From Minisyncoccota bacterium (GTDB lineage: Bacteria; Patescibacteriota; Minisyncoccia; Phycocordibacterales; UBA9973): a stretch of 58,071 bases of DNA. Under the pieces are notes generated by a model. It worked only from the letters and a program-made list of their open reading frames with translations, ran no database searches and was not told the origin of the DNA. The position numbers and the translations under genes were made by a program. Positions 12,424 to 30,384 of the stretch are shown here, piece after piece (positions within the stretch are counted from its first letter, which is position 1; each line of letters opens with the position of its first letter). The stretch is taken from NCBI GenBank assembly GCA_018061865.1, contig JAGOTH010000002.1:1-58071 (forward strand), given 5' to 3'.

Positions 12424-15400
12424 TTAGCTTTGAGGGTTAGCTTTTGAAGCCCCGTCGTCCTTGGTAGCAGCCTTCCAACCACCATTATTAGCGCCTCCTA
12501 TAGATGTAGCCGTTTGACCCTGACTCTCTACTCTGGAACCTCTCTGTCCTGACTCTTTTATCTCCTTTATCTTGTTTGCATCCATCATATCTCTCGTTAC
12601 AATCCTAGGTGGAGCCTCAACCACTTCAGCATCTTCATCTTCTCCAGCTTCTCGTGGTCTATTTTCGTCCCAGTCCTTAACATCTTCACCTTTTCTTTTT
12701 CTCATTTCTCTCATTATTTCTTTCTTAGACATACCAAGAAGGAAGTCAGCTTCTTTCATCATTTCTTCGTGCATCTTTATGCTATTTTTAAGACTTTTTA
12801 TCTCGTCTTTTGATTTCTTGTCATTCTTGTCTGCGTCAACCTTGTCTTCAAAGTCTTTCTTCTCATCTTTTAGAGATTGAATTTTTTCTTTAAGATTTTC
12901 TAGATACTTCTTCGTATATTCTGAAGGTCTGAAAACAGCAACCCCTATTCCACCATTTCGTTTTGATTTAATGAAGTCTTCTTTAGAAATTATATCTTCA
13001 CCTAATTCCTTTTTGTAATCCAAGTAGTCAATTATTGAGTCCATGGCAAGAATTGCCCCTACTGCTTTATACACTTCATTGGATTCTTCGGCGCGTTCAA
13101 GTCCCGAGATATTTGCCATATAAATATTTTTCAATTCCTCTGCACTCTTTCCTTCAAGATTTTTCAAAACTTCTTTTGTAAGAAGAGGAAAACCAGGAAC
13201 TGATTCGAAACTACTTTCACTTTCTGCAAAAGGAATATTTGAATCAATTTGTCTATAAGCCCTAACTGGGGCATCGGCAGACCCTGCTCGCCACTGATCA
13301 AGACCACTTCTCCATCCTGATTCTTCTTCTACATATTCACCCTCTTCACCTTTCTTAAGAGTTTTTTGATCCTTAGGCTTTTCAGGGTTTATATTTTTAC
13401 GAGCTTGGTCAATCTGTTCTTTTGTCTTTCTCTTTGTTCCACCAAGACCTCGTCGAGGATCCATTGGAATGATTGGCGGCAATGTTGGATCAACAAATGT
13501 TCCGTCTCTTGCTGGCTCTCCGATATCATAAATGATTGTTTCTTTTATGCTTTCACTTCCGCCGTCAACTGTATCTGTTATTTTATCCATTCCGTCTCCA
13601 ACATAAGTTGCAAGAATTCTGACGTGTTCAACACCATTAGTTTCTCCTCGAACTTCCGCCACTTCAGCGTAGCGACCGAGGAATTCTGCTTTACCATTGT
13701 GCATATCGAACAACTTTCCAGCAGGACTGTCTGGATCGATTGTCGCAGAACCATCAGGATTAAGGGTTACTTCAAAAGGATGTGACTGAGTTCCGTCAGA
13801 CGCTGACAAAAGAATTTTTAGCTTTCCTTCAGCAAGAAGCTGTTTTGCGTCTGCACTTTCAAGACCTTGGAATGACCCGTTTTCTGTCATTCTACTCATA
13901 TCGAAAACATAGTTTCCATTTGCATCTATTCCCTTTCCATCAACTCCTCCCCAATCAAGCTTAAGCTCATTCTTATCAAACAAAGGTGAAGGGGTGTCAT
14001 TTCCGTACCAGAGATCTCTTTTTATGTGCTCTGTCGCATCAGCGTGATTCTCCACAAATTCATCGTCTGTTATTTCTCGGACAACATCATCAGCTTCTAC
14101 ACTAGAAATATATTCATCAAATCTTATTCCCTCTTTCAAGAAAGCTTCTTTCGCTTCGTCTGTCAGAGTTCCATCTTCATTAACTGTGAAGTAATTCAAA
14201 ATAACTTCTCCATCTTTCATCAAGGCATAACCATCTATCTTTTGATCGACTTCAACAATGTCATATCCTTCTGGAAGACAGAAAGTGTTTTCATCTATTT
14301 TAAACTCAACTGTCGGAAGTAGTTCTGTTCCAGAAAAAGACATATCTCCACCTCCAAATTTTCCATTCTGAATCCAGCCACGAACAGACTCCATAAAGGT
14401 TGCGTGATCAACTCCCTTGTTCTCAAGCTTAAATGCTTTATCAAACATTTTCTCAAAGAATCCGATTTTGTTTTGCTGAAAGGCCGCTCCGATTTCTTGG
14501 GTAACAGTTCCAACGAGTAGACCAGTCGCAAGCCCTTTAACAACAGCTTTTGCCACTCTTCCTCTTTTCATCTTTTTGAAAATTCTATCTTTGTCTTTCA
14601 TTCCCTCAACACCCTTTTCTTCATCTCCCTCTCGGATTAGTTTTGTTTGAGTTTCTACGTTTCCTCTCAAGTAATCGTCGAAAGTCTGACCTTCAGGAAT
14701 TTTTACTTTTCCTGTTTCTACGAGTTTTCTCAATTCAACTTTAGCTTTTGCTTTTGCAAGATCAAGAGCAAATCTCTCTTCTTCAACTAGAGTGACATCT
14801 GTATAGTGAAGCAAGTCAATTTTTTCTTTGTCAGACATCTGAACTCTAGTTTCTGCATTGGCAAGAAAATTCATCTTTTCATTGAAGTAAGCTTCTACTT
14901 CTTTTTCAGTAGCCTCAGGTTTTAATGTTTTGGACAAATTGTCCATCATGTTTTTTGCACCAACAGTCTCATATCGAGCCTCTTCCATCTTGTCTCTTCG
15001 TGCTGCTTCTTTTTCATTTTCCTCATCTCCCTCTCGTCCCTCAGCCATTTGTCTTGAGTGTGACTTTCTTTCGAGTTTTACTTTTCTTGATTCACGAAGT
15101 CCTGCACCGACTCCAGTAATAAGAGCTCCCGCTCCAAAAGTTATCTGACTTCTTAGTGTTTGAGAAATTTTGCTTTTTGTTGCAAAGGACAGGATTCCTG
15201 AAGTAATTGCAACAGCGCTCGCCAAAGTTGCTTCGTTTACATATTTACCCACCTTAGACTCCATAACGAAGTTAGTGAACTTATCTATTTTGTTATAGTT
15301 TGCTTCTGTTCTAACTCCTGTTTTCGCTTTTCCGAGGACGATCTCAAGATCGTAATCAAGCTTATCTAATCCGTCACTGTGCTCCATAAGAGCCTTTATC

Positions 15401-16125
15401 TGTTCTGCAGCTTCTAAGATGTTATCAGCATAAATAACTCCCTTATCTAGGACTTCTTTAGACATTGCTTCTTTTGTAGAAGAAAGAATTACATTTTTTC
15501 TGCTATCAAAATCTTCTTTGCTTATTTTGTTTTCTACATACAGATCAATAAGACCTCTTATTTCTCCCTCTACTTTTTTCCCAGCTGTTGTTTCTGCGTT
15601 TAGAACTTCTCTCGCTTCTCCCGCTTCTGTGTGGATCAATCCTTCAACTTCTTCTATAAATCTCTTAGCAGTTACAAGCTTGGCTGTTTTGTCAGAAGAA
15701 ATAGAAGCGTCTTCTTCGTTCGCGTATAGATTTTTTGAGTCTTCTATATTCTTTTTAGCTTTTCTTTTTGCTTTTGCTCTCTCGTAATCATAAAAATAAT
15801 TATTCCAAACTCTACCAAAGAATCCTTTTACTCCTTTTGACTCGGCGCTTCTTTTTTCTAATTCTCTTTCGGCTGCATCAATTGCCTTGTCTTCTATTCC
15901 AGAAGAAACGTCAACGATACCAACTTTTATTTTTGGTTTTTTGTTTTCAGTCTTTGTTTCTTCTTTTTTTATTTCGTTTTTTTCTTCAGAAGCAACAACT
16001 TTTTCTTTTGGTGCTTCAGGAGAAACTTTTACCTCAGAATCAGAAGCGCCTTCATTTTTTTGAAGTTTCTTCTTTGTATTTAAATTTTCATTTTTTGGTT
16101 CGAGTTCCGGGATGCTTTCAGGCAT
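12424..16125 (-). CDS. giant (1233 aa) K/E-rich membrane-anchored protein of unknown function
   Basis: Uninterrupted ATG ORF. Highly charged N-terminal region of about 300 aa, hydrophobic segments at aa ~299-316, ~328-343 and ~524-547, and a C-terminal region of about 680 aa with no motif I recognise. Confidence 0.7.
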   Translation of the reverse strand: MPESIPELEPKNENLNTKKKLQKNEGASDSEVKVSPEAPKEKVVASEEKNEIKKEETKTENKKPKIKVGIVDVSSGIEDKAIDAAERELEKRSAESKGVKGFFGRVWNNYFYDYERAKAKRKAKKNIEDSKNLYANEEDASISSDKTAKLVTAKRFIEEVEGLIHTEAGEAREVLNAETTAGKKVEGEIRGLIDLYVENKISKEDFDSRKNVILSSTKEAMSKEVLDKGVIYADNILEAAEQIKALMEHSDGLDKLDYDLEIVLGKAKTGVRTEANYNKIDKFTNFVMESKVGKYVNEATLASAVAITSGILSFATKSKISQTLRSQITFGAGALITGVGAGLRESRKVKLERKSHSRQMAEGREGDEENEKEAARRDKMEEARYETVGAKNMMDNLSKTLKPEATEKEVEAYFNEKMNFLANAETRVQMSDKEKIDLLHYTDVTLVEEERFALDLAKAKAKVELRKLVETGKVKIPEGQTFDDYLRGNVETQTKLIREGDEEKGVEGMKDKDRIFKKMKRGRVAKAVVKGLATGLLVGTVTQEIGAAFQQNKIGFFEKMFDKAFKLENKGVDHATFMESVRGWIQNGKFGGGDMSFSGTELLPTVEFKIDENTFCLPEGYDIVEVDQKIDGYALMKDGEVILNYFTVNEDGTLTDEAKEAFLKEGIRFDEYISSVEADDVVREITDDEFVENHADATEHIKRDLWYGNDTPSPLFDKNELKLDWGGVDGKGIDANGNYVFDMSRMTENGSFQGLESADAKQLLAEGKLKILLSASDGTQSHPFEVTLNPDGSATIDPDSPAGKLFDMHNGKAEFLGRYAEVAEVRGETNGVEHVRILATYVGDGMDKITDTVDGGSESIKETIIYDIGEPARDGTFVDPTLPPIIPMDPRRGLGGTKRKTKEQIDQARKNINPEKPKDQKTLKKGEEGEYVEEESGWRSGLDQWRAGSADAPVRAYRQIDSNIPFAESESSFESVPGFPLLTKEVLKNLEGKSAEELKNIYMANISGLERAEESNEVYKAVGAILAMDSIIDYLDYKKELGEDIISKEDFIKSKRNGGIGVAVFRPSEYTKKYLENLKEKIQSLKDEKKDFEDKVDADKNDKKSKDEIKSLKNSIKMHEEMMKEADFLLGMSKKEIMREMRKRKGEDVKDWDENRPREAGEDEDAEVVEAPPRIVTRDMMDANKIKEIKESGQRGSRVESQGQTATSIGGANNGGWKAATKDDGASKANPQS

Positions 16126-23579: not shown

Positions 23580-23661
23580 GCTGAGGTGGCGAAATTGGTA
23601 GACGCACTTGCCTTAGGAGCAAGCGGGGTGACCCATGGAGGTTCAAGTCCTCTCCTCAGCA
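23580..23661 (+). tRNA. tRNA-Leu (anticodon TAG)
   Basis: Acceptor gctgagg/cctcagc, anticodon stem cttgc/gcaag with loop ctTAGga, long variable arm, T-loop ttcaagt. No encoded CCA. Confidence 0.9.
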
Positions 23662-23718
23662 CAAAGTCTGGCTTCGCGTGGTTCCCTTCCCTAGTCGGTG
23701 CGAATCCCGACATAAAAC

Positions 23719-23790
23719 GGCCACGTAGCCAAGTAGTAAGGCATTCCTCTGCAAAAGGAATATACGCGAGTGCGATTCTCGCCGTGGCCT
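23719..23790 (+). tRNA. tRNA-Cys (anticodon GCA)
   Basis: Acceptor ggccacg/cgtggcc, anticodon stem ttcct/aggaa with loop ctGCAaa, T-arm gcgag-tgcgatt-ctcgc, discriminator U. No encoded CCA. Confidence 0.9.
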
Positions 23791-23876
23791 CAGGATAGTT
23801 TGTAGTTTAAAATTATAAAGGAATAGAAACATTAAGCATTTACCTTGTTCCATTACCCTTATGATATAATTTATTC

Positions 23877-24350
23877 ATGAGGACTAAAAAATGGGCACAA
23901 AAAGAACTTTCTTTAGCTGTAAAACAATCTACAAGTATACGGCAAGTCATAAAAATTCTTGGACTAATACCAGCTGGTGGGAATTATCACCAGGTATCTA
24001 AGTATATAAAAGAATTTAATATCGATATAAAGCATTTTAAAGGTAAAGGTTGGAACAAAGGAAACACTGGCGGATATAGACCAATAATCCCAACATCTTT
24101 AATCCTAAAAAATGGAATAGAGTTTCAAAGTTATAAACTAAAAAATAGATTATTTAAGGAAAAAATATTAGAACCAAAATGTTCTTTGTGTGGATGGGCA
24201 AAAATTTCAGAAGATGGTAGACTTCCTCTTGAATTAGATCATATAAATGGGAAGAGGAATGACAATCGTATAGAAAACCTAAGAATACTTTGTCCAAACT
24301 GTCATAGTCTTCAAATAACGCATAGAGGTAAAAACAAAAAGAGAAGTTAA
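23877..24350 (+). CDS. HNH endonuclease (157 aa)
   Basis: C-terminal HNH/zinc motif CSLCGW...LELDHINGKRNDNRIENLRILCPNCH, with an N-terminal HTH-like segment. Sits between tRNA-Cys and tRNA-Leu(TAA). Confidence 0.85.
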   Translation: MRTKKWAQKELSLAVKQSTSIRQVIKILGLIPAGGNYHQVSKYIKEFNIDIKHFKGKGWNKGNTGGYRPIIPTSLILKNGIEFQSYKLKNRLFKEKILEPKCSLCGWAKISEDGRLPLELDHINGKRNDNRIENLRILCPNCHSLQITHRGKNKKRS

Positions 24351-24355
24351 AATTT

Positions 24356-24441
24356 GGGCCAGTGGCGAAATGGTATACGCGCAACACTTAAAATGTTGTC
24401 TCAACTCTGAGGTGCGGGTTCGACCCCCGCCTGGCCCACCA
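24356..24441 (+). tRNA. tRNA-Leu (anticodon TAA), 3' CCA encoded
   Basis: Acceptor gggccag/ctggccc, anticodon stem caaca/tgttg with loop ctTAAaa, variable arm ctca-actc-tgag, T-arm gcggg-ttcgacc-cccgc, then A-CCA. Confidence 0.9.
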
Positions 24442-24447
24442 TAAATC

Positions 24448-24478
24448 AAAAAACCTAAGACATTGTCTTAGGTTTTTT
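24448..24478 (+). terminator. intrinsic terminator after tRNA-Leu(TAA)
   Basis: aaaaaacctaagaca-ttg-tcttaggtttttt. Confidence 0.8.
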
Positions 24479-24482
24479 GATT

Positions 24483-24602
24483 GTGCCCCCGACAAACAAC
24501 ATTACGAACGCTGGGGCAATTTATGAAGGTAATTCTAGCCCAGGAAGCCTGAAAAATGAACTTATGGAATTAAAGGACATACTTGAGGATAAAAGTGAGT
24601 AA
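24483..24602 (+). repeat. paralogous 120-nt unit, copy 1 (possible 39-aa GTG-initiated mini-ORF)
   Basis: Would translate as VPPTNNITNAGAIYEGNSSPGSLKNELMELKDILEDKSE*. Same length and frame as 25204-25323. The ends are near-identical and the middle diverged with conservative codon changes. Confidence 0.6.
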
Positions 24603-24623
24603 ATTAAAGCTTATTCTAACAAC

Positions 24624-24653
24624 TTGACAAAGCAACCTTTTATGTGATATAAT
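24624..24653 (+). promoter_or_regulatory. sigma-70-like promoter with extended -10
   Basis: TTGACA, 18 nt spacer, TGaTATAAT, about 85 nt upstream of the ATG at 24740. Confidence 0.6.
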
Positions 24654-24739
24654 AACTATAGACGTATACATTCTGTTTATGTCCCTGCCTCGGCAGTTTC
24701 CGAGAATTCTTGTACATTTAAATAAAAGAAAAAACTGTT

Positions 24740-25123
24740 ATGAAACAGAAAACTTTTCATCCGCTGACAGCTACTTTCATAAGTGCTGTTGTGCAAACTC
24801 TCCCAACTGACATTTCAACTGAACACATGCAACTTTGGATTGAACATCCAAAAGACCTGCAGATTGTTTTAAAGACAATGTTAGAATCATCTTTCACCGT
24901 TATTGATAATGACGATGAACTTTATAAGGGAAGATTATCCTTTAAGATAACAAAAATTGGAGACGAAACCTTTCACCAACAAACTGCGAAATTTATCGCC
25001 GTTGTAGTGCAAAGCATTCCTATGATTAGCAATGATCGTATGGAATTCTGGAGCAGTCATCTGAACACTCTGCAAAGAGAACTCAGGAAAACTTTACTCA
25101 AGAATTTGGTTCCAAATATCTAA
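24740..25123 (+). CDS. hypothetical protein with an internal tandem repeat (127 aa)
   Basis: Two ~45-aa repeats: FHPLTATFISAVVQTLPTDISTEHMQLWIEHPKDLQIVLKTML and FHQQTAKFIAVVVQSIPMISNDRMEFWSSHLNTLQRELRKTLL. Has its own promoter and terminator. Confidence 0.6.
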   Translation: MKQKTFHPLTATFISAVVQTLPTDISTEHMQLWIEHPKDLQIVLKTMLESSFTVIDNDDELYKGRLSFKITKIGDETFHQQTAKFIAVVVQSIPMISNDRMEFWSSHLNTLQRELRKTLLKNLVPNI

Positions 25124-25203
25124 GGCTTAATTACACAGACTACACAATATCATTCCACCAGGGATGATATTTTTTTATATGTAATTGTTATTTATAACAA
25201 TTT

Positions 25204-25323
25204 GTGCCCCCGACAAACAAGATTACGAACGGTGGGGCATTTTCTGAGGCTGAACTTAATACAAAAAGCCTTAAAAACGACCTTTTGGAGTTAAAAGAGA
25301 TACTTGAGGATAAAAGTGAGTAA
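25204..25323 (+). repeat. paralogous 120-nt unit, copy 2 (possible 39-aa mini-ORF)
   Basis: Would translate as VPPTNKITNGGAFSEAELNTKSLKNDLLELKEILEDKSE*. The 26-nt run atacttgaggataaaagtgagtaaat is identical to copy 1. Confidence 0.6.
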
Positions 25324-25359
25324 ATAGAAAACCTACTTATTATTTAAATAATATTTTTC

Positions 25360-26346
25360 CTATATATCTTCTAATCTTTTTATTTCCCCTCTTTCTAAAT
25401 TCTCTATAAGCCAAGACATTTTATGTCTGGCCTCATCTTCAACCGTATCCCATAGCCAAGAAGAACGATTGAAAGTCTTTGTAACAAGATTTAATATCTT
25501 TTGGACAGCATCAAACAACTCTTCTGTGTCTTTAAAAATAATTCTATTGAGTCCATTTCTATCTACATCTAAATCAAGATGAGCCACAGTCTTATCCCTA
25601 ATATCTTTAAGATATTCTATATTTGTTTGTTGAGAATCAATAATTTCATTAATTTCTTTTAATTGTTCTTCAGAGGGCTCTAGTAATTTAATAATCTTTT
25701 TTAGATTAAGTGATGGATCTTGTTTGTCAAAAAACAAACATAGATCGATTACAAAAACATAGAAACATCCCCTAAGAATACTATTAAAAACAAAACCATA
25801 CTTGCTTATAACAGACACGAAATGATCTGCCCTCTCAACACCAGCTTCATTTGTATTTCTTGCAGATTCTATCCACTTCCATAATAAGTAAGAAGTGTAA
25901 GCAGAAGACATTCTTGAAATTGCCAAAGTGATCATATTCTCAAGCTTGATAAGTCTTTTAACTTCTTCATTTATATAATTCTCTGGTATTTCTTCTGGAT
26001 TAAACCACTTCCATTCAGTAAATTTTTCTGGTTCCATAAGACGAGGCTCTTGGTTACTTGAACAACGATAAACCAAAACCTTGTCATCTTTATAGACTCC
26101 GCTAACTTCTCCTAAAAATTTTTCTATTTTTAAATCGTTAAGTCCTACCTCTTCTTCGGTTTCTCTTTGTAAAGCTTGTTCTATGGTTTCTCCATCGTCA
26201 CATCTTCCACCAGGACAGGTCCAAACTGATATAACCTTATATTTATCTTTAGTATAATTCCTTAGCCCACACAGAACTTTTCCGTCTCGAAAAATAATGG
26301 CTTGAGTAGCTATTTTATTACCACCTTTTTCTTTTAGTCTATGCAT
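25360..26346 (-). CDS. Nudix hydrolase fused to a HEPN-like (AbiU2-style) C-terminal domain
   Basis: aa 47-69 GRCDDGETIEQALQRETEEEVGL fit the Nudix box Gx5Ex7REUxEExGU. The helical C-terminal ~190 aa carry RDKTVAH (aa 250-256, nt 25579-25599), which matches the HEPN Rx4-6H motif. Confidence 0.65.
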   Translation of the reverse strand: MHRLKEKGGNKIATQAIIFRDGKVLCGLRNYTKDKYKVISVWTCPGGRCDDGETIEQALQRETEEEVGLNDLKIEKFLGEVSGVYKDDKVLVYRCSSNQEPRLMEPEKFTEWKWFNPEEIPENYINEEVKRLIKLENMITLAISRMSSAYTSYLLWKWIESARNTNEAGVERADHFVSVISKYGFVFNSILRGCFYVFVIDLCLFFDKQDPSLNLKKIIKLLEPSEEQLKEINEIIDSQQTNIEYLKDIRDKTVAHLDLDVDRNGLNRIIFKDTEELFDAVQKILNLVTKTFNRSSWLWDTVEDEARHKMSWLIENLERGEIKRLEDI

Positions 26347-26516
26347 ACGGTTTTACTTATTTAAACTACTGTTTTACCAATTGGGAAAATAATACAATAT
26401 TTTTATCTAAATAGAAAATTTACCCTATATCCTTCTCTTTAAATAAAATAATTTTGAACCAGAAAATAATCTTTATTTACAAGATAAAAGAGATGTTTTA
26501 TCTCTTTTATCTTGTG

Positions 26517-26592
26517 TGGTGCGCCCACTAGGAGTTGAACCTAGGACCGTTCGCTTAAGAGGCGACTGCTCTACCAGCTGAGCTATGGGCGC
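26517..26592 (-). tRNA. tRNA-Lys (anticodon CTT), 3' CCA encoded
   Basis: The reverse complement folds as gcgccca-ta-gctcagctggtagagc-...ctCTTaa...-ctagg-ttcaact-cctag-tgggcgc-a-cca. Terminator hairpin at 26481-26514. Confidence 0.9.
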
Positions 26593-26695: not shown

Positions 26696-26715
26696 AACAA
26701 AAAAGCTATTTGAAA

Positions 26716-27963
26716 ATGATAAATTCGATAAACAAAGCTATTGTGTGGCTAGTAGTCATAACAGTAGCAATCTGGCTATTTCTTGCCGGATTTAATTTGG
26801 GGCCATTTGCCCTTGTGTTCCCTGCCCTCACAATAACATTCTGGAGATTTATACTCTGGGATGCAAACAACAAGAACTGGTTTGTTGTAAAGGCCAGAGA
26901 AAATGAAGCCATCTGGGCGGTATCAGGCGACAGTGTGCCCAAAAAACCTATTTTTACATCAGAAGGTAGAAAGATTCTCAGAAATGGAGACATGAAAGAA
27001 GCTCCTAGTAAAAAAACTGGGATAATGAATGGACCTGGTATTTTTGGTTCAGGAATTTATTTTCTTCCCAACCTAGGTAGAATCGGTGGTGTAAAAATAC
27101 TCAAAAAGAAAATGTCTTGGCTCGAGTACGAGCAAAAAGACAAGACATTTGATTTGATTCCTCGAGTAAAAGAAGAAACTCCTTATATTTACACGAAGAC
27201 TGCCAACTATGCAGTAGTTTTAAATAGCATAGAAGACATGGACGGACTTCGGGTTGATCTGATAATAGGAGTCCCTGGATTTTTCGAGAATGTTAAAAAA
27301 CCAGTTTTTAAAGTAGATGAACCTTTTGCAAGAATACAAAATATTTTGCAAGATGCAGTAGTCAAACTGGCACTGGAAGAATTAACCTTCGACTTCATGA
27401 CCCAAACAGAGGGAAATCAAGGAAACGCAAATATTCTCAAAAGGAAGAAGACCTTCGAAAGAATAAAAGAAGTTATCAAGGAATCTCATTCTCGTATAAA
27501 AGAAGAGCTAGGGTTTACTATTGTTCAAGAGATGATTATCTCTTTCGAACTTGCAGGTGCTATCGGTCAACAACTATACGAAAAGCTGGCCGGTGTAGAA
27601 ACTGCCCGACTTGATGCCAGAATAACTGTCATGAATGCAGAGGCTCTAGCCGACGCAGCGATTCACGAAGCAAAGGCAACAACGGTAAAGGGTAACGCAG
27701 ACGCTACGGTTATTAAAGCAAAAGGTGGGGCCACAAACAAAATCCTTAATAAAAGAAAGAAACAACTCGGAGAAATGGGATTCGCAATGAACCAATTCAA
27801 TGAGGGAATTTCTAATTTCCAAGGAGAGGCCATTTCCATCAACTTTGGAAGTGACGCCAAAAGTAACCTTCAGTTTGTAAAACCCATCGGAGGCGGTGGG
27901 GGCAACAAAGGAGGTGGAAACACACCTCCGAAAAAAACCAAACAAATAAAACAAAAAAATTAA
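26716..27963 (+). CDS. SPFH/band-7-like membrane protein
   Basis: Trimmed from the TTG at 26710 to the ATG at 26716. N-terminal TM hairpin, then VVKARENEAIWAV...GIYFLPNLGRI (SPFH-like). Ala-rich coil LDARITVMNAEALADAAIHEAKATTVKGNADATVIKAKGGA and a Gly/Lys tail. Confidence 0.55.
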   Translation: MINSINKAIVWLVVITVAIWLFLAGFNLGPFALVFPALTITFWRFILWDANNKNWFVVKARENEAIWAVSGDSVPKKPIFTSEGRKILRNGDMKEAPSKKTGIMNGPGIFGSGIYFLPNLGRIGGVKILKKKMSWLEYEQKDKTFDLIPRVKEETPYIYTKTANYAVVLNSIEDMDGLRVDLIIGVPGFFENVKKPVFKVDEPFARIQNILQDAVVKLALEELTFDFMTQTEGNQGNANILKRKKTFERIKEVIKESHSRIKEELGFTIVQEMIISFELAGAIGQQLYEKLAGVETARLDARITVMNAEALADAAIHEAKATTVKGNADATVIKAKGGATNKILNKRKKQLGEMGFAMNQFNEGISNFQGEAISINFGSDAKSNLQFVKPIGGGGGNKGGGNTPPKKTKQIKQKN

Positions 27964-27969
27964 AAAGAG

Positions 27970-28227
27970 ATGAGCTTAATTGTATGGATTATTTTTGGGG
28001 TGATCATGGGACTGATAATTTTGGCAAACTTTTTCTTCTTTAGAAATAAAGATTCAAAGAAAAAAACCAAAAATCAGGAGGATGATATCATCGCTCCGAA
28101 ATTCAAGACAAAGGATCCTTGGCAAAAACGGAACCTGTTTAATGGGTTCCTGTATTATGTCGGACAGCCCGCAATTTGGTTTGTGGGAGTGTCGCTGATA
28201 TTCTACGTAATTGTCAACGGATTCTAA
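27970..28227 (+). CDS. small two-TM membrane protein (85 aa)
   Basis: ATG preceded by AAAGAG, 6 nt after the SPFH-like gene. Hydrophobic helices at both ends. Confidence 0.5.
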   Translation: MSLIVWIIFGVIMGLIILANFFFFRNKDSKKKTKNQEDDIIAPKFKTKDPWQKRNLFNGFLYYVGQPAIWFVGVSLIFYVIVNGF

Positions 28228-28330: not shown

Positions 28331-28705
28331 TTAAGTAGGCAAGTCTCCATCATAACCAACAGTATTTCCAACAATTCTGATTATTGTATAAACCGCCAGC
28401 ATTATCACAAATCCGATAATACCCCACATCATATGTTGCTGTCCGTTCTTCTTTGCGTCAGCTGATTCCCAGTCTTTTATGTATTGGAAAACTCCCCACA
28501 TAAACACAAGTAGTGCAACTGCAAACATGAAGTAGATAACGGGGTTTATAATAAGAGCCCCAAGCTTTCCAATAAAATCTCTTATTGGTTGCAAAACAGC
28601 ATCATTATCCCCATCCGCGGCATACAGAAAGAGCGGTGACGCCACCGCTCCTACTACAATCAGAACTTTATTCGAAATCGATTTCAAAGTCTGGAATTTC
28701 ATCAT
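28331..28705 (-). CDS. TrbC/VirB2-like pilin paralog 5
   Basis: Start trimmed to the ATG (MMKFQTLKSISNKVLIVVGAVASPLFLYA signal peptide). Two TM helices flank the loop DWESADAKKNGQQ. Overlaps the upstream paralog's 3' end. Confidence 0.6.
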   Translation of the reverse strand: MMKFQTLKSISNKVLIVVGAVASPLFLYAADGDNDAVLQPIRDFIGKLGALIINPVIYFMFAVALLVFMWGVFQYIKDWESADAKKNGQQHMMWGIIGFVIMLAVYTIIRIVGNTVGYDGDLPT

Positions 28706-29024
28706 CTGTAATTGATTGTCCTTGATCAAGATCAAAAGTACCAGCAAGTATTCCTACAAGTCCCCATAGACATAGTATTCCTGCGAAAATTCCGACAGCA
28801 AGAAGAACTTTGTCTTTTGCAGCTTTCTTTGCATCATCATCTTTTGCAATAAAAAGCATAATCATCTGATAAACGAAGAATAGGAATCCTAGGGCAAGAA
28901 GGAATGGGATAAGGTCGTTAATAAATCCTCCGAGTGTTTCAAGGACACCTTGAATGTCATCAGCGGCAAATACAAAAACTGGCATAAATCCAGCGATTAT
29001 TCCAAATGGAAGTAATTTTTTCAT
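28668..29024 (-). CDS. TrbC/VirB2-like pilin paralog 4
   Basis: Signal peptide MKKLLPFGIIAGFMPVFVFA. TM, loop AKDDDAKKAAKDK, TM. Acidic tail. Confidence 0.65.
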   Translation of the reverse strand: MKKLLPFGIIAGFMPVFVFAADDIQGVLETLGGFINDLIPFLLALGFLFFVYQMIMLFIAKDDDAKKAAKDKVLLAVGIFAGILCLWGLVGILAGTFDLDQGQSITDDEIPDFEIDFE

Positions 29025-29103
29025 CTAATTAATATAAAGTTTATAACTTCTAATAAATCAATTATAGCATCAAAAGTCCCCTGTAAACAGGACCTGTGGA
29101 ATA

Positions 29104-29601
29104 CTATATTCCGTTTATTGTATTTAGAATTATTCCCACAATTCCAAATATAGTAACCATGACAGTGAAAGCTATAACACTCCAGAGCATATACTCTGCA
29201 GCTTCTGCTCTCTTTTCTGATTTTGCTGGATTGTTAAGATAACTTATTGCATTCCAAACAAAGAATACGAAGGCAATGGCAATAACGAGAGGAATTAAAC
29301 TTTTTGAAATCAAACAAGTCGCAAAATTAAAAACATTAGCCACAGATCCGGCTGGTTTATCGGGACAATTTCCGAGCCCACTAGAAAAGGATCCACTTCC
29401 TCCACCTTGGCCAACCGTAAAAGGATCTATGTCGTTGTCTCCGCTTAAGACATTTATGTTTGTATCTATACCAGAACCTGATCCGTCAGTTTGAAGTATA
29501 ATCCCGTCTTTTTGTGAAGTAGTAAAACCCCAAGTATCTGTTCCCGCGAAAGAAAATGCTGGAGTTACAAGTAAAATAATAAGTAGGAGTATATTTTTCA
29601 T
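29104..29601 (-). CDS. TrbC/VirB2-like pilin paralog 3 (Gly/Ser-rich insert)
   Basis: Signal peptide MKNILLLIILLVTPAFSFA. TM, loop NNPAKSEKRAEAAE, TM. Confidence 0.65.
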   Translation of the reverse strand: MKNILLLIILLVTPAFSFAGTDTWGFTTSQKDGIILQTDGSGSGIDTNINVLSGDNDIDPFTVGQGGGSGSFSSGLGNCPDKPAGSVANVFNFATCLISKSLIPLVIAIAFVFFVWNAISYLNNPAKSEKRAEAAEYMLWSVIAFTVMVTIFGIVGIILNTINGI

Positions 29602-29609
29602 CTCAATAT

Positions 29610-29975
29610 TTAAAGTGCGTCTATGGTTCCTTGTAATGCTTCGGCGATGGCGTTTGCACCGAGAATTAGAGCAGTTCCGAGTACCGCACCTAAAAACATA
29701 CTTTTGGCGTTTGTCAGTTTTGTTTTATCCCCCATTGCTGTAACAAACAAAAATCCTGAGTAGATGAAAACAATTGTCAGAACAGGTATTGCGATAAGTG
29801 TAATGATATCAATTATAAGAGTTATCACTTCTGGAACATCATCGGCAGTTCCTGCGATAGGGTTTTCGAGCTTTACATCAAGAGTGTAACCGTCCCCTTC
29901 GGCGGCCATAACTGGGCTAAAGGCTAGAAACATTCCGAAGGCTAAAGCAGAAAATAATTTTAGTGTTTTTTTCAT
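29610..29975 (-). CDS. TrbC/VirB2-like pilin paralog 2
   Basis: Signal peptide MKKTLKLFSALAFGMFLAFSPVMA. TM, loop MGDKTKLTNAKS, TM. Confidence 0.7.
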   Translation of the reverse strand: MKKTLKLFSALAFGMFLAFSPVMAAEGDGYTLDVKLENPIAGTADDVPEVITLIIDIITLIAIPVLTIVFIYSGFLFVTAMGDKTKLTNAKSMFLGAVLGTALILGANAIAEALQGTIDAL

Positions 29976-30000
29976 TAATTTAATATTATCACAAATAAAA

Positions 30001-30384
30001 TTAGCCTAAAAACTGAGTACACGAATCACAACCCAAGGCCTCGAGAACAAACTCCACAATAAGCCAAGCAGCTAGGGCAATAGAGAGACCTATTAAAACA
30101 TTCCACATCATTCCCTTGGCCTTCTTTATTGCATCAGGACTTGCCCCTTTGGTTAGAAATATCCAGCCAGCGTACATGATTATTATAGTCGCAATAGGAA
30201 TAGCTAAAGTAAAAATCAGAAAATCAATAACATTATCAACAAGAAGTACTACATCTTCGAAGCTACAAGGGTCTCCTGCGTTTCCATTACACGGAATAAG
30301 ACCGTAATCTGCAGCTGAAGATGCCAGCGGGAAAATTAGAACTATTAAAGAAAATATAATTAAAAGTATTTTTTTCATAAACAT
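30001..30384 (-). CDS. TrbC/VirB2-like pilin paralog 1
   Basis: Signal peptide, PCNGNAGDPCSFED, then TM, loop KGASPDAIKKAKG, TM. Resembles the CPR T4SS-pilin-type family. Alternative ATG at 30378. Confidence 0.7.
   Translation of the reverse strand: MFMKKILLIIFSLIVLIFPLASSAADYGLIPCNGNAGDPCSFEDVVLLVDNVIDFLIFTLAIPIATIIIMYAGWIFLTKGASPDAIKKAKGMMWNVLIGLSIALAAWLIVEFVLEALGCDSCTQFLG

Follow-up and report, generated by a model that had tools for sequence, protein, structure and literature searches.

A Nudix-HEPN fusion gene in the tRNA array of a Minisyncoccota bacterium: a candidate single-gene abortive-infection-type ribonuclease

HEPN ribonucleases (RNases) are the effectors of Cas13, of Csm6, of many toxin-antitoxin pairs and of several abortive-infection systems, and how they are silenced and targeted is a central question. 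In the CARF-HEPN protein Csm6 the sensor domain degrades its own activator, and in PrrC an N-terminal NTPase that senses GTP and dTTP accompanies a HEPN-type nuclease cutting tRNA-Lys. PrrC and RloC are listed as HEPN anticodon nucleases linked to restriction-modification in the reference catalogue of the superfamily, which lists the abortive-infection family AbiU2 with Sel1-repeat and restriction-modification neighbours only and mentions neither Nudix nor ASCH (PMC3710099). NUDIX hydrolases have in turn been described as effectors that defence systems can exchange for one another, for example in the cyclic-oligonucleotide-based antiphage signalling system CBASS (2TM-NUDIX), and a 2026 preprint on integron-cassette screens reports that a stand-alone dimeric HEPN AbiU2 (Vibrio mimicus HNPBCG_15845) protects against T4 and T7 and a stand-alone dimeric NUDIX (V. 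vulnificus LDILCD_07645) against phages ICP1-3. Here we describe a gene in which these two families are joined in one polypeptide. It lies in a stretch of 58,071 nucleotides (hereafter the window) from a Minisyncoccota bacterium (assembly GCA_018061865.1, contig JAGOTH010000002.1), and it encodes a real, selectively maintained two-domain protein of 328 residues with an N-terminal Nudix domain and a C-terminal AbiU2-family HEPN domain (Table 1). The anatomy of the fusion is secure, and its mechanism is one that we infer: we favour, with rather less than even confidence, an RNase of abortive-infection type encoded by a mobile single gene. Its Nudix domain would be an optional front end, recognising and hydrolysing a nucleoside-diphosphate-linked group, for which we would favour the 5' end of RNA.

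The C-terminal half had been proposed to be an AbiU2-type HEPN domain in a preliminary description made from the sequence letters, and Pfam supports this assignment above its cut-off. The model HEPN_AbiU2 (PF18734) matches residues 175-308 with an E-value (E) of 3.3e-14 (53.3 bits against a gathering cut-off of 26.8) and matches the half on its own with E 7.4e-15 (55.4 bits); the same model is matched by 72 of 72 aligned relatives, the best E among these family members being 1.6e-23. The putative catalytic signature RDKTVAH stands at residues 250-256, exactly where it had been placed, encoded by AGG GAT AAG ACT GTG GCT CAT (25579-25599, reverse-complemented). Both R250 and H256 are invariant in alignments of 62 and of 72 sequences, and in the larger alignment they are the sole invariant columns. 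In the relatives shown, the motif arginine is followed by D, N or S, and one of them (P0080) has the form Rx4H. D207 is likewise invariant in the smaller alignment and reaches at least 90% conservation in the larger one; a conserved acidic residue in helix 2, near the motif, is described for HEPN domains (PMC3710099). The half is all-helical, as the preliminary description had held, with helices from residue 127 to residue 327 in both AlphaFold models. In the AlphaFold2 (AF2) model, helix 184-204 is followed by D207, helix 240-255 ends in the motif and helix 263-289 comes after it, so that the predicted helix order and motif position agree with the published HEPN definition (PMC3710099). The variable segment at residues 205-239 is the site of a 31-residue insertion in longer relatives.

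Judged by its sequence, the N-terminal half is a predicted Nudix pyrophosphohydrolase of the minimal MutT/RppH-like kind, in which none of the catalytic residues is missing. Pfam NUDIX (PF00293) covers residues 13-128 with E 5.9e-19 (68.8 bits against a cut-off of 21.1). A string search puts GGRCDDGETIEQALQRETEEEVGL at residue 46, in agreement with the Nudix box claimed for residues 47-69, and the pattern of the box is complete: G47-x5-E53-x7-R61-E62-T63-E64-E65-E66-V67-G68-L69. When conservation of the Nudix glutamates was checked, the catalytic residues proved identical in P0002, the relative with the same two-domain layout, and in stand-alone relatives. Among solved structures, its sequence comes closest to MutT, AtNUDX1 and BdRppH, an RNA pyrophosphohydrolase. 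Foldseek confirmed that the AF2 model of this half has the Nudix alpha/beta fold, returning NUDT15, BdRppH (3ees) and MutT (4dyw) with a probability of 1.0 and TMt of 0.6-0.7, and AtNUDX1 and, further down the list, NudC, also with a probability of 1.0. The half belongs to a very large clade of stand-alone Parcubacteria Nudix proteins (about 140 residues, 50-63% identical), whose genes are monocistronic and without a conserved operon; some of them adjoin RNase Y, HU, ClpP or trigger factor. Other fusions in this clade, to a glycosyltransferase, an aldo-keto reductase, a TsaD fragment or a tandem Nudix, gave no functional hint.

A linker had been claimed near residue 135, and this part of the preliminary description was not upheld. 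The models show an unbroken helix from residue 127 to residue 164, which runs from the last Nudix helix into the first HEPN helix, with no flexible linker and with a predicted local distance difference test score (pLDDT) of 84-94. The better AlphaFold model has a pLDDT of 85.9 and a predicted template modelling score (pTM) of 0.83, where the inter-domain prediction is almost without covariation because the fusion comprises two sequence clusters only. A mixed alignment of 120 sequences, in which HEPN-only proteins fell on the Nudix half, was set aside and separate alignments were used.

The window's own fusion protein is present on 29 contigs. P0002, which is 78% identical to it, comes from Candidatus Zambryskibacteria and 'Parcubacteria group' metagenome-assembled genomes (MAGs), where it is found on more than 25 contigs from independent assemblies. 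Between the two proteins the ratio of non-synonymous to synonymous substitution rates is 0.059 for the whole coding sequence, 0.053 for the Nudix half and 0.055 for the HEPN half, values that are approximate in that synonymous sites are near saturation between the two lineages. Both halves are under strong purifying selection, and both motifs are retained in population variants of the fusion. In public records the protein is named 'hypothetical', 'Nudix hydrolase domain-containing' or, wrongly, orotate phosphoribosyltransferase, and the HEPN half is annotated in none of its records.

The architecture is rare. An exhaustive phmmer scan of 1.84 billion representatives (about 15 billion proteins) gave 2,581 matches, both halves being covered only in the window's own 50% cluster, which spans two closely related Zambryskibacteria-like lineages; among 185,579 species-representative genomes a match was obtained in only one Zambryskibacteria MAG. 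The fusion had not been recognised as a named system in the preliminary description, and Nudix-HEPN is indeed absent from the HEPN reference catalogue and from the searchable literature. No relatives of the HEPN half were found in viral contigs (two scans), in a phage collection or in a plasmid collection. The HEPN family itself has at least 64 clusters in metagenomes of the candidate phyla radiation (CPR) and DPANN, nearly all of them stand-alone proteins of 190-250 residues. Two sisters of the fusion, P0080 and P0093, fall in the same short HEPN subclade (36-38% identical) and carry an ASCH domain, which is N-terminal in P0080 and C-terminal in P0093; they are known from one to three short metagenome contigs only. 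The residues W156, K157, D201, D207, R250 and H256 are common to the cores of all three proteins. With ASCH sisters standing alongside the Nudix fusion, the HEPN core is one that is usually alone and occasionally gains a small domain handling nucleotides or RNA marks. The HEPN_AbiU2 and Nudix families are both known; what is new is Nudix as an accessory domain on a single-gene Abi-type HEPN. A Rosetta-stone test found no separate Nudix gene next to the stand-alone HEPN proteins P0005, P0006, P0060 and P0061, and no HEPN gene next to the stand-alone Nudix proteins P0219, P0227 and P0269.

Two further family members were observed in the course of this survey. P0155 (491 residues) has a C-terminal AbiU2-type HEPN preceded by about 260 residues with no Pfam match, which may be a third type of head. 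At 2952-4228 of contig L012, and also on L013 and L014, two tandem genes encode proteins of 206 residues, of which at least the first (P0061) is AbiU2-like; they may form a HEPN heterodimer pair.

Compared with the AbiU2 family, as represented by AbiU2 of L. lactis and the Vibrio mimicus cassette, the fusion shares the profile and the motif R-[DN]-x3-A-H, and it shares the single-gene form with the Vibrio cassette. The association of AbiU2 with restriction-modification and mobile regions (PMC3710099) is matched by the setting of the fusion in its second lineage. It differs in its N-terminal Nudix domain, in its CPR/Parcubacteria host and in having no AbiU1, Sel1-repeat or Bxe_C0808 partner. 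A tblastn search against plasmid records gave no match to the fusion, which is too divergent. P0080 and P0093 likewise carry one small nucleotide- or RNA-binding domain directly on the HEPN core, theirs being the PUA-like ASCH rather than Nudix. Csm6 and Csx1 resemble the fusion in placing a nucleotide-binding domain before a C-terminal HEPN; their front fold is the Rossmann-like CARF, whereas that of the fusion is Nudix, and the fusion has no CRISPR locus, Cas10 or source of cyclic oligoadenylate nearby. The PADLOC model CARF_HEPN matches the HEPN region of the fusion weakly (E 0.002-0.006). The order of a nucleotide-handling domain followed by a C-terminal HEPN is also that of PrrC and RloC, which serve in defence of the abortive-infection type and where the controlling N-terminal domain is an ABC-type NTPase in place of Nudix. 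The small Nudix proteins BdRppH (3EES), NUDT15/MTH2, AtNUDX1 and MutT have the full box and the fold of about 130 residues in common with the fusion, which differs from them by its HEPN domain.

The gene is part of an insertion into a tRNA array. The backbone around it, ClpB-IscS-IF-2-RbfA on one side and the pilin paralogues-SBP-GyrA on the other, is syntenic in distant relatives (contigs L023-L027), and in L023-L026 RbfA is followed by a compact one-strand array of tRNA-Cys, tRNA-Leu(taa), tRNA-Lys(ctt) and tRNA-Leu(tag). The gap between tRNA-Leu(taa) and tRNA-Lys is 35-143 bp in L023-L026 against 2,075 bp in the window, which bears out the tRNA-bounded islet of the preliminary description. 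The genes of the inserted block have no homologue in the syntenic relatives. The block has a guanine-cytosine (GC) content of 32.3% against a window mean of 37.5%, and the fusion gene itself, at 32.2%, is among the lowest 2.6% of equal-sized windows. Since tRNA-Leu(tag) now stands in front and tRNA-Lys is inverted (window 23580-26592 compared with L023-L027), more than one rearrangement took place at this hot spot. In L027 the same array holds other insertions, including an open reading frame (ORF) of LAGLIDADG type. Neither an integrase nor a clear att repeat was found for the insertion in the window. The gene has the operational marks of a genomic island: it is present or absent at a conserved backbone site, its composition is atypical, and related genomes carry it elsewhere. 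On its upstream side, on the same strand, tRNA-Lys(ctt) lies 170 nt away. The hairpin between the two is followed by no clean U-tract and there is no consensus promoter in 26347-26516, so that read-through from tRNA-Lys into the fusion gene may be possible.

In the second lineage the fusion gene is found at an unrelated site, about 2 kb from tRNA-Ser(cga) and tRNA-Glu(ttc) and with no tRNA-Lys. Nucleotide homology between the loci of the two lineages coincides exactly with the coding sequence and includes nothing beyond it. A variable patch lies beyond the tRNA genes, the fusion gene being on the conserved side of the locus. Its content differs from contig to contig and may be an MvaI/BcnI restriction-modification pair, a SocA/Panacea-type gene, or a serine recombinase together with a SNF2 helicase; this patch beyond tRNA-Ser is a strain-variable hot spot of defence and mobile genes. 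In L001 (4994-7566) a LexA/S24-N6_N4 methyltransferase fusion accompanies the MvaI/BcnI endonuclease, and the alternative content in L005 (2399-7035) is the serine recombinase and a SNF2/DEAD helicase of 1,086 residues. Stand-alone family members occur in similar surroundings: P0005 between two integrases by tRNA-Thr, P0060 directly before tRNA-Val, and P0061 as tandem paralogues. The claim of a non-housekeeping setting was upheld: the homologues do not belong to housekeeping operons, and their places are beside variable patches, integrases and tRNA genes. Apart from the fusion gene, the loci of the window and of its relatives have nothing in common, and no IF-2 in the metagenome collection comes closer than 52%; with these comparisons the 78% identity between the fusion proteins does not discriminate transfer from vertical descent.

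The immediate neighbours were inspected for partners of known HEPN systems. An AbiU1 gene is absent from the neighbours in the window and in L001-L008, which are small ORFs, tRNA genes and a homing HNH endonuclease only. No nucleotidyltransferase domain, as in the HEPN-MNT pairing, occurs in any neighbour in either context, and the surroundings of the gene in the window and in L001-L008 are free of cas genes, such as accompany CARF proteins in type III CRISPR loci. In neither context does the fusion gene have a signal generator, such as a cyclase or TIR, close by. Because no neighbour is shared between the contexts and none is a known partner, we take the unit to be a single gene. The fusion gene behaves as a mobile, single-gene accessory unit.

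On these grounds we can outline how the preferred reading, an abortive-infection-type RNase with an optional front end, might work. The HEPN domain, presumably as a dimer, would act as a metal-independent endoribonuclease cutting RNA. The Nudix front end would both recognise and hydrolyse its nucleoside-diphosphate-linked group, and the RNA 5' end that we favour would carry a triphosphate or an NAD-type cap. One protein could then strip the protective 5' end from an RNA and cut its body, and gene expression would be shut down in phage infection or another conflict. The ASCH sisters would follow the same logic with a different recognition module, ASCH being a reader of RNA or modified bases. 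For this reading we argue from four points: most family members are headless, ASCH replaces Nudix at either end, a signal-producing enzyme is lacking nearby, and the nearest Nudix structures include RNA pyrophosphohydrolases. A role of the fusion in defence is plausible but circumstantial.

Several results weigh against this reading. Foldseek with the C-terminal half returned no significant HEPN structure from the PDB or from the predicted viral structures of BFVD: the HEPN-confident model gave generic long-helix matches only (BAR, TRF1) at E of 0.07 or above, and Csm6 appeared at rank 35 with an insignificant E of 2.4. Sequence searches of the PDB with HEPN profiles of 4 and of 72 sequences gave nothing meaningful and no solved relative. 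With neither a fold match nor a solved relative, the evidence for HEPN membership consists of the Pfam family, the motif and the order of the helices. A literature search found no biochemical data on any AbiU2-family protein. The Nudix half is as near to the nucleotide-sanitising enzymes NUDT15, MutT and AtNUDX1 as to the RNA pyrophosphohydrolases, and this equal similarity means that the data do not favour an RNA 5'-end substrate. The rigid joining helix predicted by the models would also suit allosteric gating. Immediately beside the gene there is no known defence gene. The fusion gene was found, highly conserved, in every assembly of its species examined, which is also compatible with a housekeeping role. 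Finally, the match of the Nudix half to the PADLOC model PDC-S07 (4.2e-15), when followed up, proved non-specific. E. coli MutT matches this model at 6.3e-39 and ordinary CPR Nudix proteins at 2e-12 to 4e-11; as a housekeeping MutT matches it much better, PDC-S07 is uninformative on defence and was rejected as evidence for it.

The joining helix is the natural starting point for the main alternative, a ligand-gated RNase. By analogy with CARF-HEPN proteins and with PrrC, the Nudix domain might be a sensor that binds a nucleoside-diphosphate-X ligand (candidates include ADP-ribose, an NAD derivative, an ApnA alarmone or a phage-modified (d)NTP) and switches the HEPN domain through this helix, with hydrolysis of the ligand as the reset. 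The predicted continuous helix would couple the two domains rigidly (pTM 0.83), a nucleotide-binding domain in front of HEPN mirrors the CARF-HEPN layout, to which the weak PADLOC match also points, the intact Nudix catalytic residues are those expected of a self-resetting sensor, and a lone HEPN toxin needs restraint where no antitoxin gene is present. Yet most family members lack any accessory domain, so that Nudix cannot serve as a general safety catch, and the occurrence of ASCH at either terminus fits a defined allosteric path poorly. Moreover, no cyclase, TIR or other generator of a signal is near, and with two fusion clusters almost no covariation lies behind the inter-domain prediction. 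We consider ligand gating possible but doubtful. Its more elaborate version, in which Nudix is a true sensor of a nucleoside-diphosphate-X signal or an RNA cap within a self-resetting HEPN switch and the ASCH sisters are parallel switches responding to modified nucleosides, we think unlikely. The two domains might instead be independent effectors on one chain, the Nudix half depleting an essential or phage-specific nucleotide pool (dNTPs, NAD or modified dNTPs) while the HEPN half cuts RNA, and the fusion would then serve only to have two anti-phage activities expressed together. That phage protection is conferred by NUDIX and by HEPN AbiU2 as separate stand-alone cassettes, that NUDIX is known as an exchangeable effector in CBASS, and that the Nudix half is closest to nucleotide-pool enzymes all speak for such an arrangement; however, a half that is 50-63% identical to abundant ordinary CPR Nudix proteins, some with housekeeping-type neighbours, is unlike a specialised toxin, and independent activities would have no need of a rigid junction, so that we regard it as quite improbable.

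The same common Nudix clade, with its occasional neighbours RNase Y, HU, ClpP and trigger factor, could point to a lineage-specific housekeeping enzyme, in which a chance fusion of Nudix and HEPN was kept for RNA turnover, combining 5'-end processing with endonucleolytic cleavage. Such an enzyme would account for the very strong purifying selection, the presence of the gene in every assembly of the species examined, its place on the conserved side of the relatives' locus and the lack of an adjacent defence partner. It is difficult to reconcile with a HEPN family that is patchy and island-linked, with different sites in two lineages without flank homology, with a low-GC insertion that disrupts a conserved tRNA array, and with the absence of the architecture from every other CPR lineage in the scan of 1.84 billion representatives; we judge it very unlikely. 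The adjacent tRNA-Lys had further suggested a link to tRNA, and by analogy with PrrC the protein might be a tRNA-Lys anticodon nuclease for which this gene is the linked target, a decoy or a spare copy. The position and strand of tRNA-Lys(ctt), together with the existence of HEPN-type tRNA-Lys cutters such as PrrC, would allow this, but tRNA-Lys belongs to the ancestral four-tRNA array of relatives without the fusion gene, the second lineage has no tRNA-Lys but tRNA-Ser(cga) and tRNA-Glu(ttc) as its nearest tRNA genes, and other family members adjoin tRNA-Val or tRNA-Thr. As tRNA-Lys owes its position to the ancestral array and the other lineage lacks this adjacency, tRNA-Lys targeting was discarded as the principal explanation and is hardly credible; tRNA arrays as insertion hot spots explain the adjacency better.

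The fusion and its ASCH sisters show that the AbiU2 branch can be fitted with small, exchangeable domains for dealing with nucleotides or RNA marks. Were the Nudix domain to direct or gate the RNase, the protein would be a compact single-chain RNase of 328 residues whose activity depends on the 5' end of an RNA or on a nucleotide ligand. It would then be of interest as a tool and for the study of immunity in the CPR, where little is known of the defence repertoire. If the sensor alternative held, it would represent a new class of ligand-gated RNase on a Nudix fold, a counterpart of CARF-HEPN proteins with ring-nuclease activity, and an AbiU2 RNase family with exchangeable sensor heads in ultra-small bacteria. 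The narrow distribution, two related lineages in one 50% cluster among 15 billion proteins, limits this importance, and the fusion may be a lineage-specific elaboration.

Table 1. Features of the fusion gene and of the surrounding tRNA array, in window coordinates
Feature	Position	Strand	Basis and remarks
Nudix-HEPN(AbiU2) fusion coding sequence	25360..26346	-	328 aa + stop, ATG start; ORF list, Pfam
Nudix domain, minimal MutT-like	25963..26310	-	aa 13-128; Pfam NUDIX, PDB sequence matches, AF2 model + Foldseek
Nudix box GRCDDGETIEQALQRETEEEVGL	26140..26208	-	aa 47-69; string position
Predicted continuous helix, last Nudix helix to HEPN helix 1	25855..25968	-	aa 127-164; DSSP on AF2 models
AbiU2-family HEPN domain, all-alpha	25363..25938	-	aa 137-328; Pfam, AF2 pLDDT ~90
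D207 codon (FFDKQ), conserved acidic residue, end of HEPN helix 2	25726..25728	-	alignments
Rx5H motif RDKTVAH (R250...H256), predicted RNase active site	25579..25599	-	end of helix 240-255
Inserted AT-rich block, orf127 cassette + fusion gene	24442..26516	.	synteny, GC
tRNA-Leu(taa), left landmark of insertion	24356..24441	+	ARAGORN; adjoins tRNA-Lys in L023-L027
tRNA-Lys(ctt), right landmark, inverted relative to ancestral array	26517..26592	-	ARAGORN, Rfam; + strand in relatives, next after tRNA-Leu(taa)
Perfect 16-bp AT-rich hairpin between tRNA-Lys and fusion gene	26479..26515	-	inverted repeat search; possibly weak terminator
Phage-type free-standing homing HNH endonuclease, between tRNA-Cys and tRNA-Leu(taa)	23877-24350		phrog_10822 E 8e-45; PADLOC 'HEase' 1e-17; 30.8% GC

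The remainder of the inserted block is occupied by a cassette of 597 bp bracketed by a direct repeat of 124 nt (24481-24604 and 25202-25325), the copies of which are 82% identical without indels. The first copy comes directly after the tRNA-Leu(taa) hairpin, and 35 nt separate the end of the second from the fusion gene's stop codon. Both contain an open frame of about 40 codons ending in ...ILEDKSE*, which resembles either a small ORF or the 3' tail of a gene. This repeat occurs in two copies only in the window, has no Rfam match and folds no better than shuffled sequence. Between the copies, the segment 24624-25171 has a perfect TTGACA-18-TATAAT promoter (24624-24653) and a terminator with an 11-bp stem (25146-25171), and encodes orf127 (24740..25123), a protein of 127 residues with weak matches to DUF505 and LmuC only and with an internal duplication (...TATFISAVVQTLP... 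/ ...TAKFIAVVVQSIP...).

On the far side of tRNA-Lys, 26710-28227 contains orf417 and orf85, for which no Pfam, PHROG or PADLOC match was obtained; orf417 has a single membrane segment at its N-terminus and a tail rich in glycine. For neither could a homologue be detected at the corresponding place in the syntenic relatives, so they may belong to the insertion or be backbone genes that evolve fast; as orf417 and its positional counterpart in L023 show no similarity, the right edge of the insertion is undefined. Next, at 28331-30384, come five tandem small membrane proteins matching models of T4SS-pilin or TrbC/VirB2. This cluster of five pilin paralogues is syntenic in the relatives, where it lies between the tRNA array and the SBP-GyrA block; further genes of type IV secretion are absent from its vicinity. 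Elsewhere in the window, 12424-16125 is a single ORF of 1,233 residues with no Pfam match at E up to 0.01.

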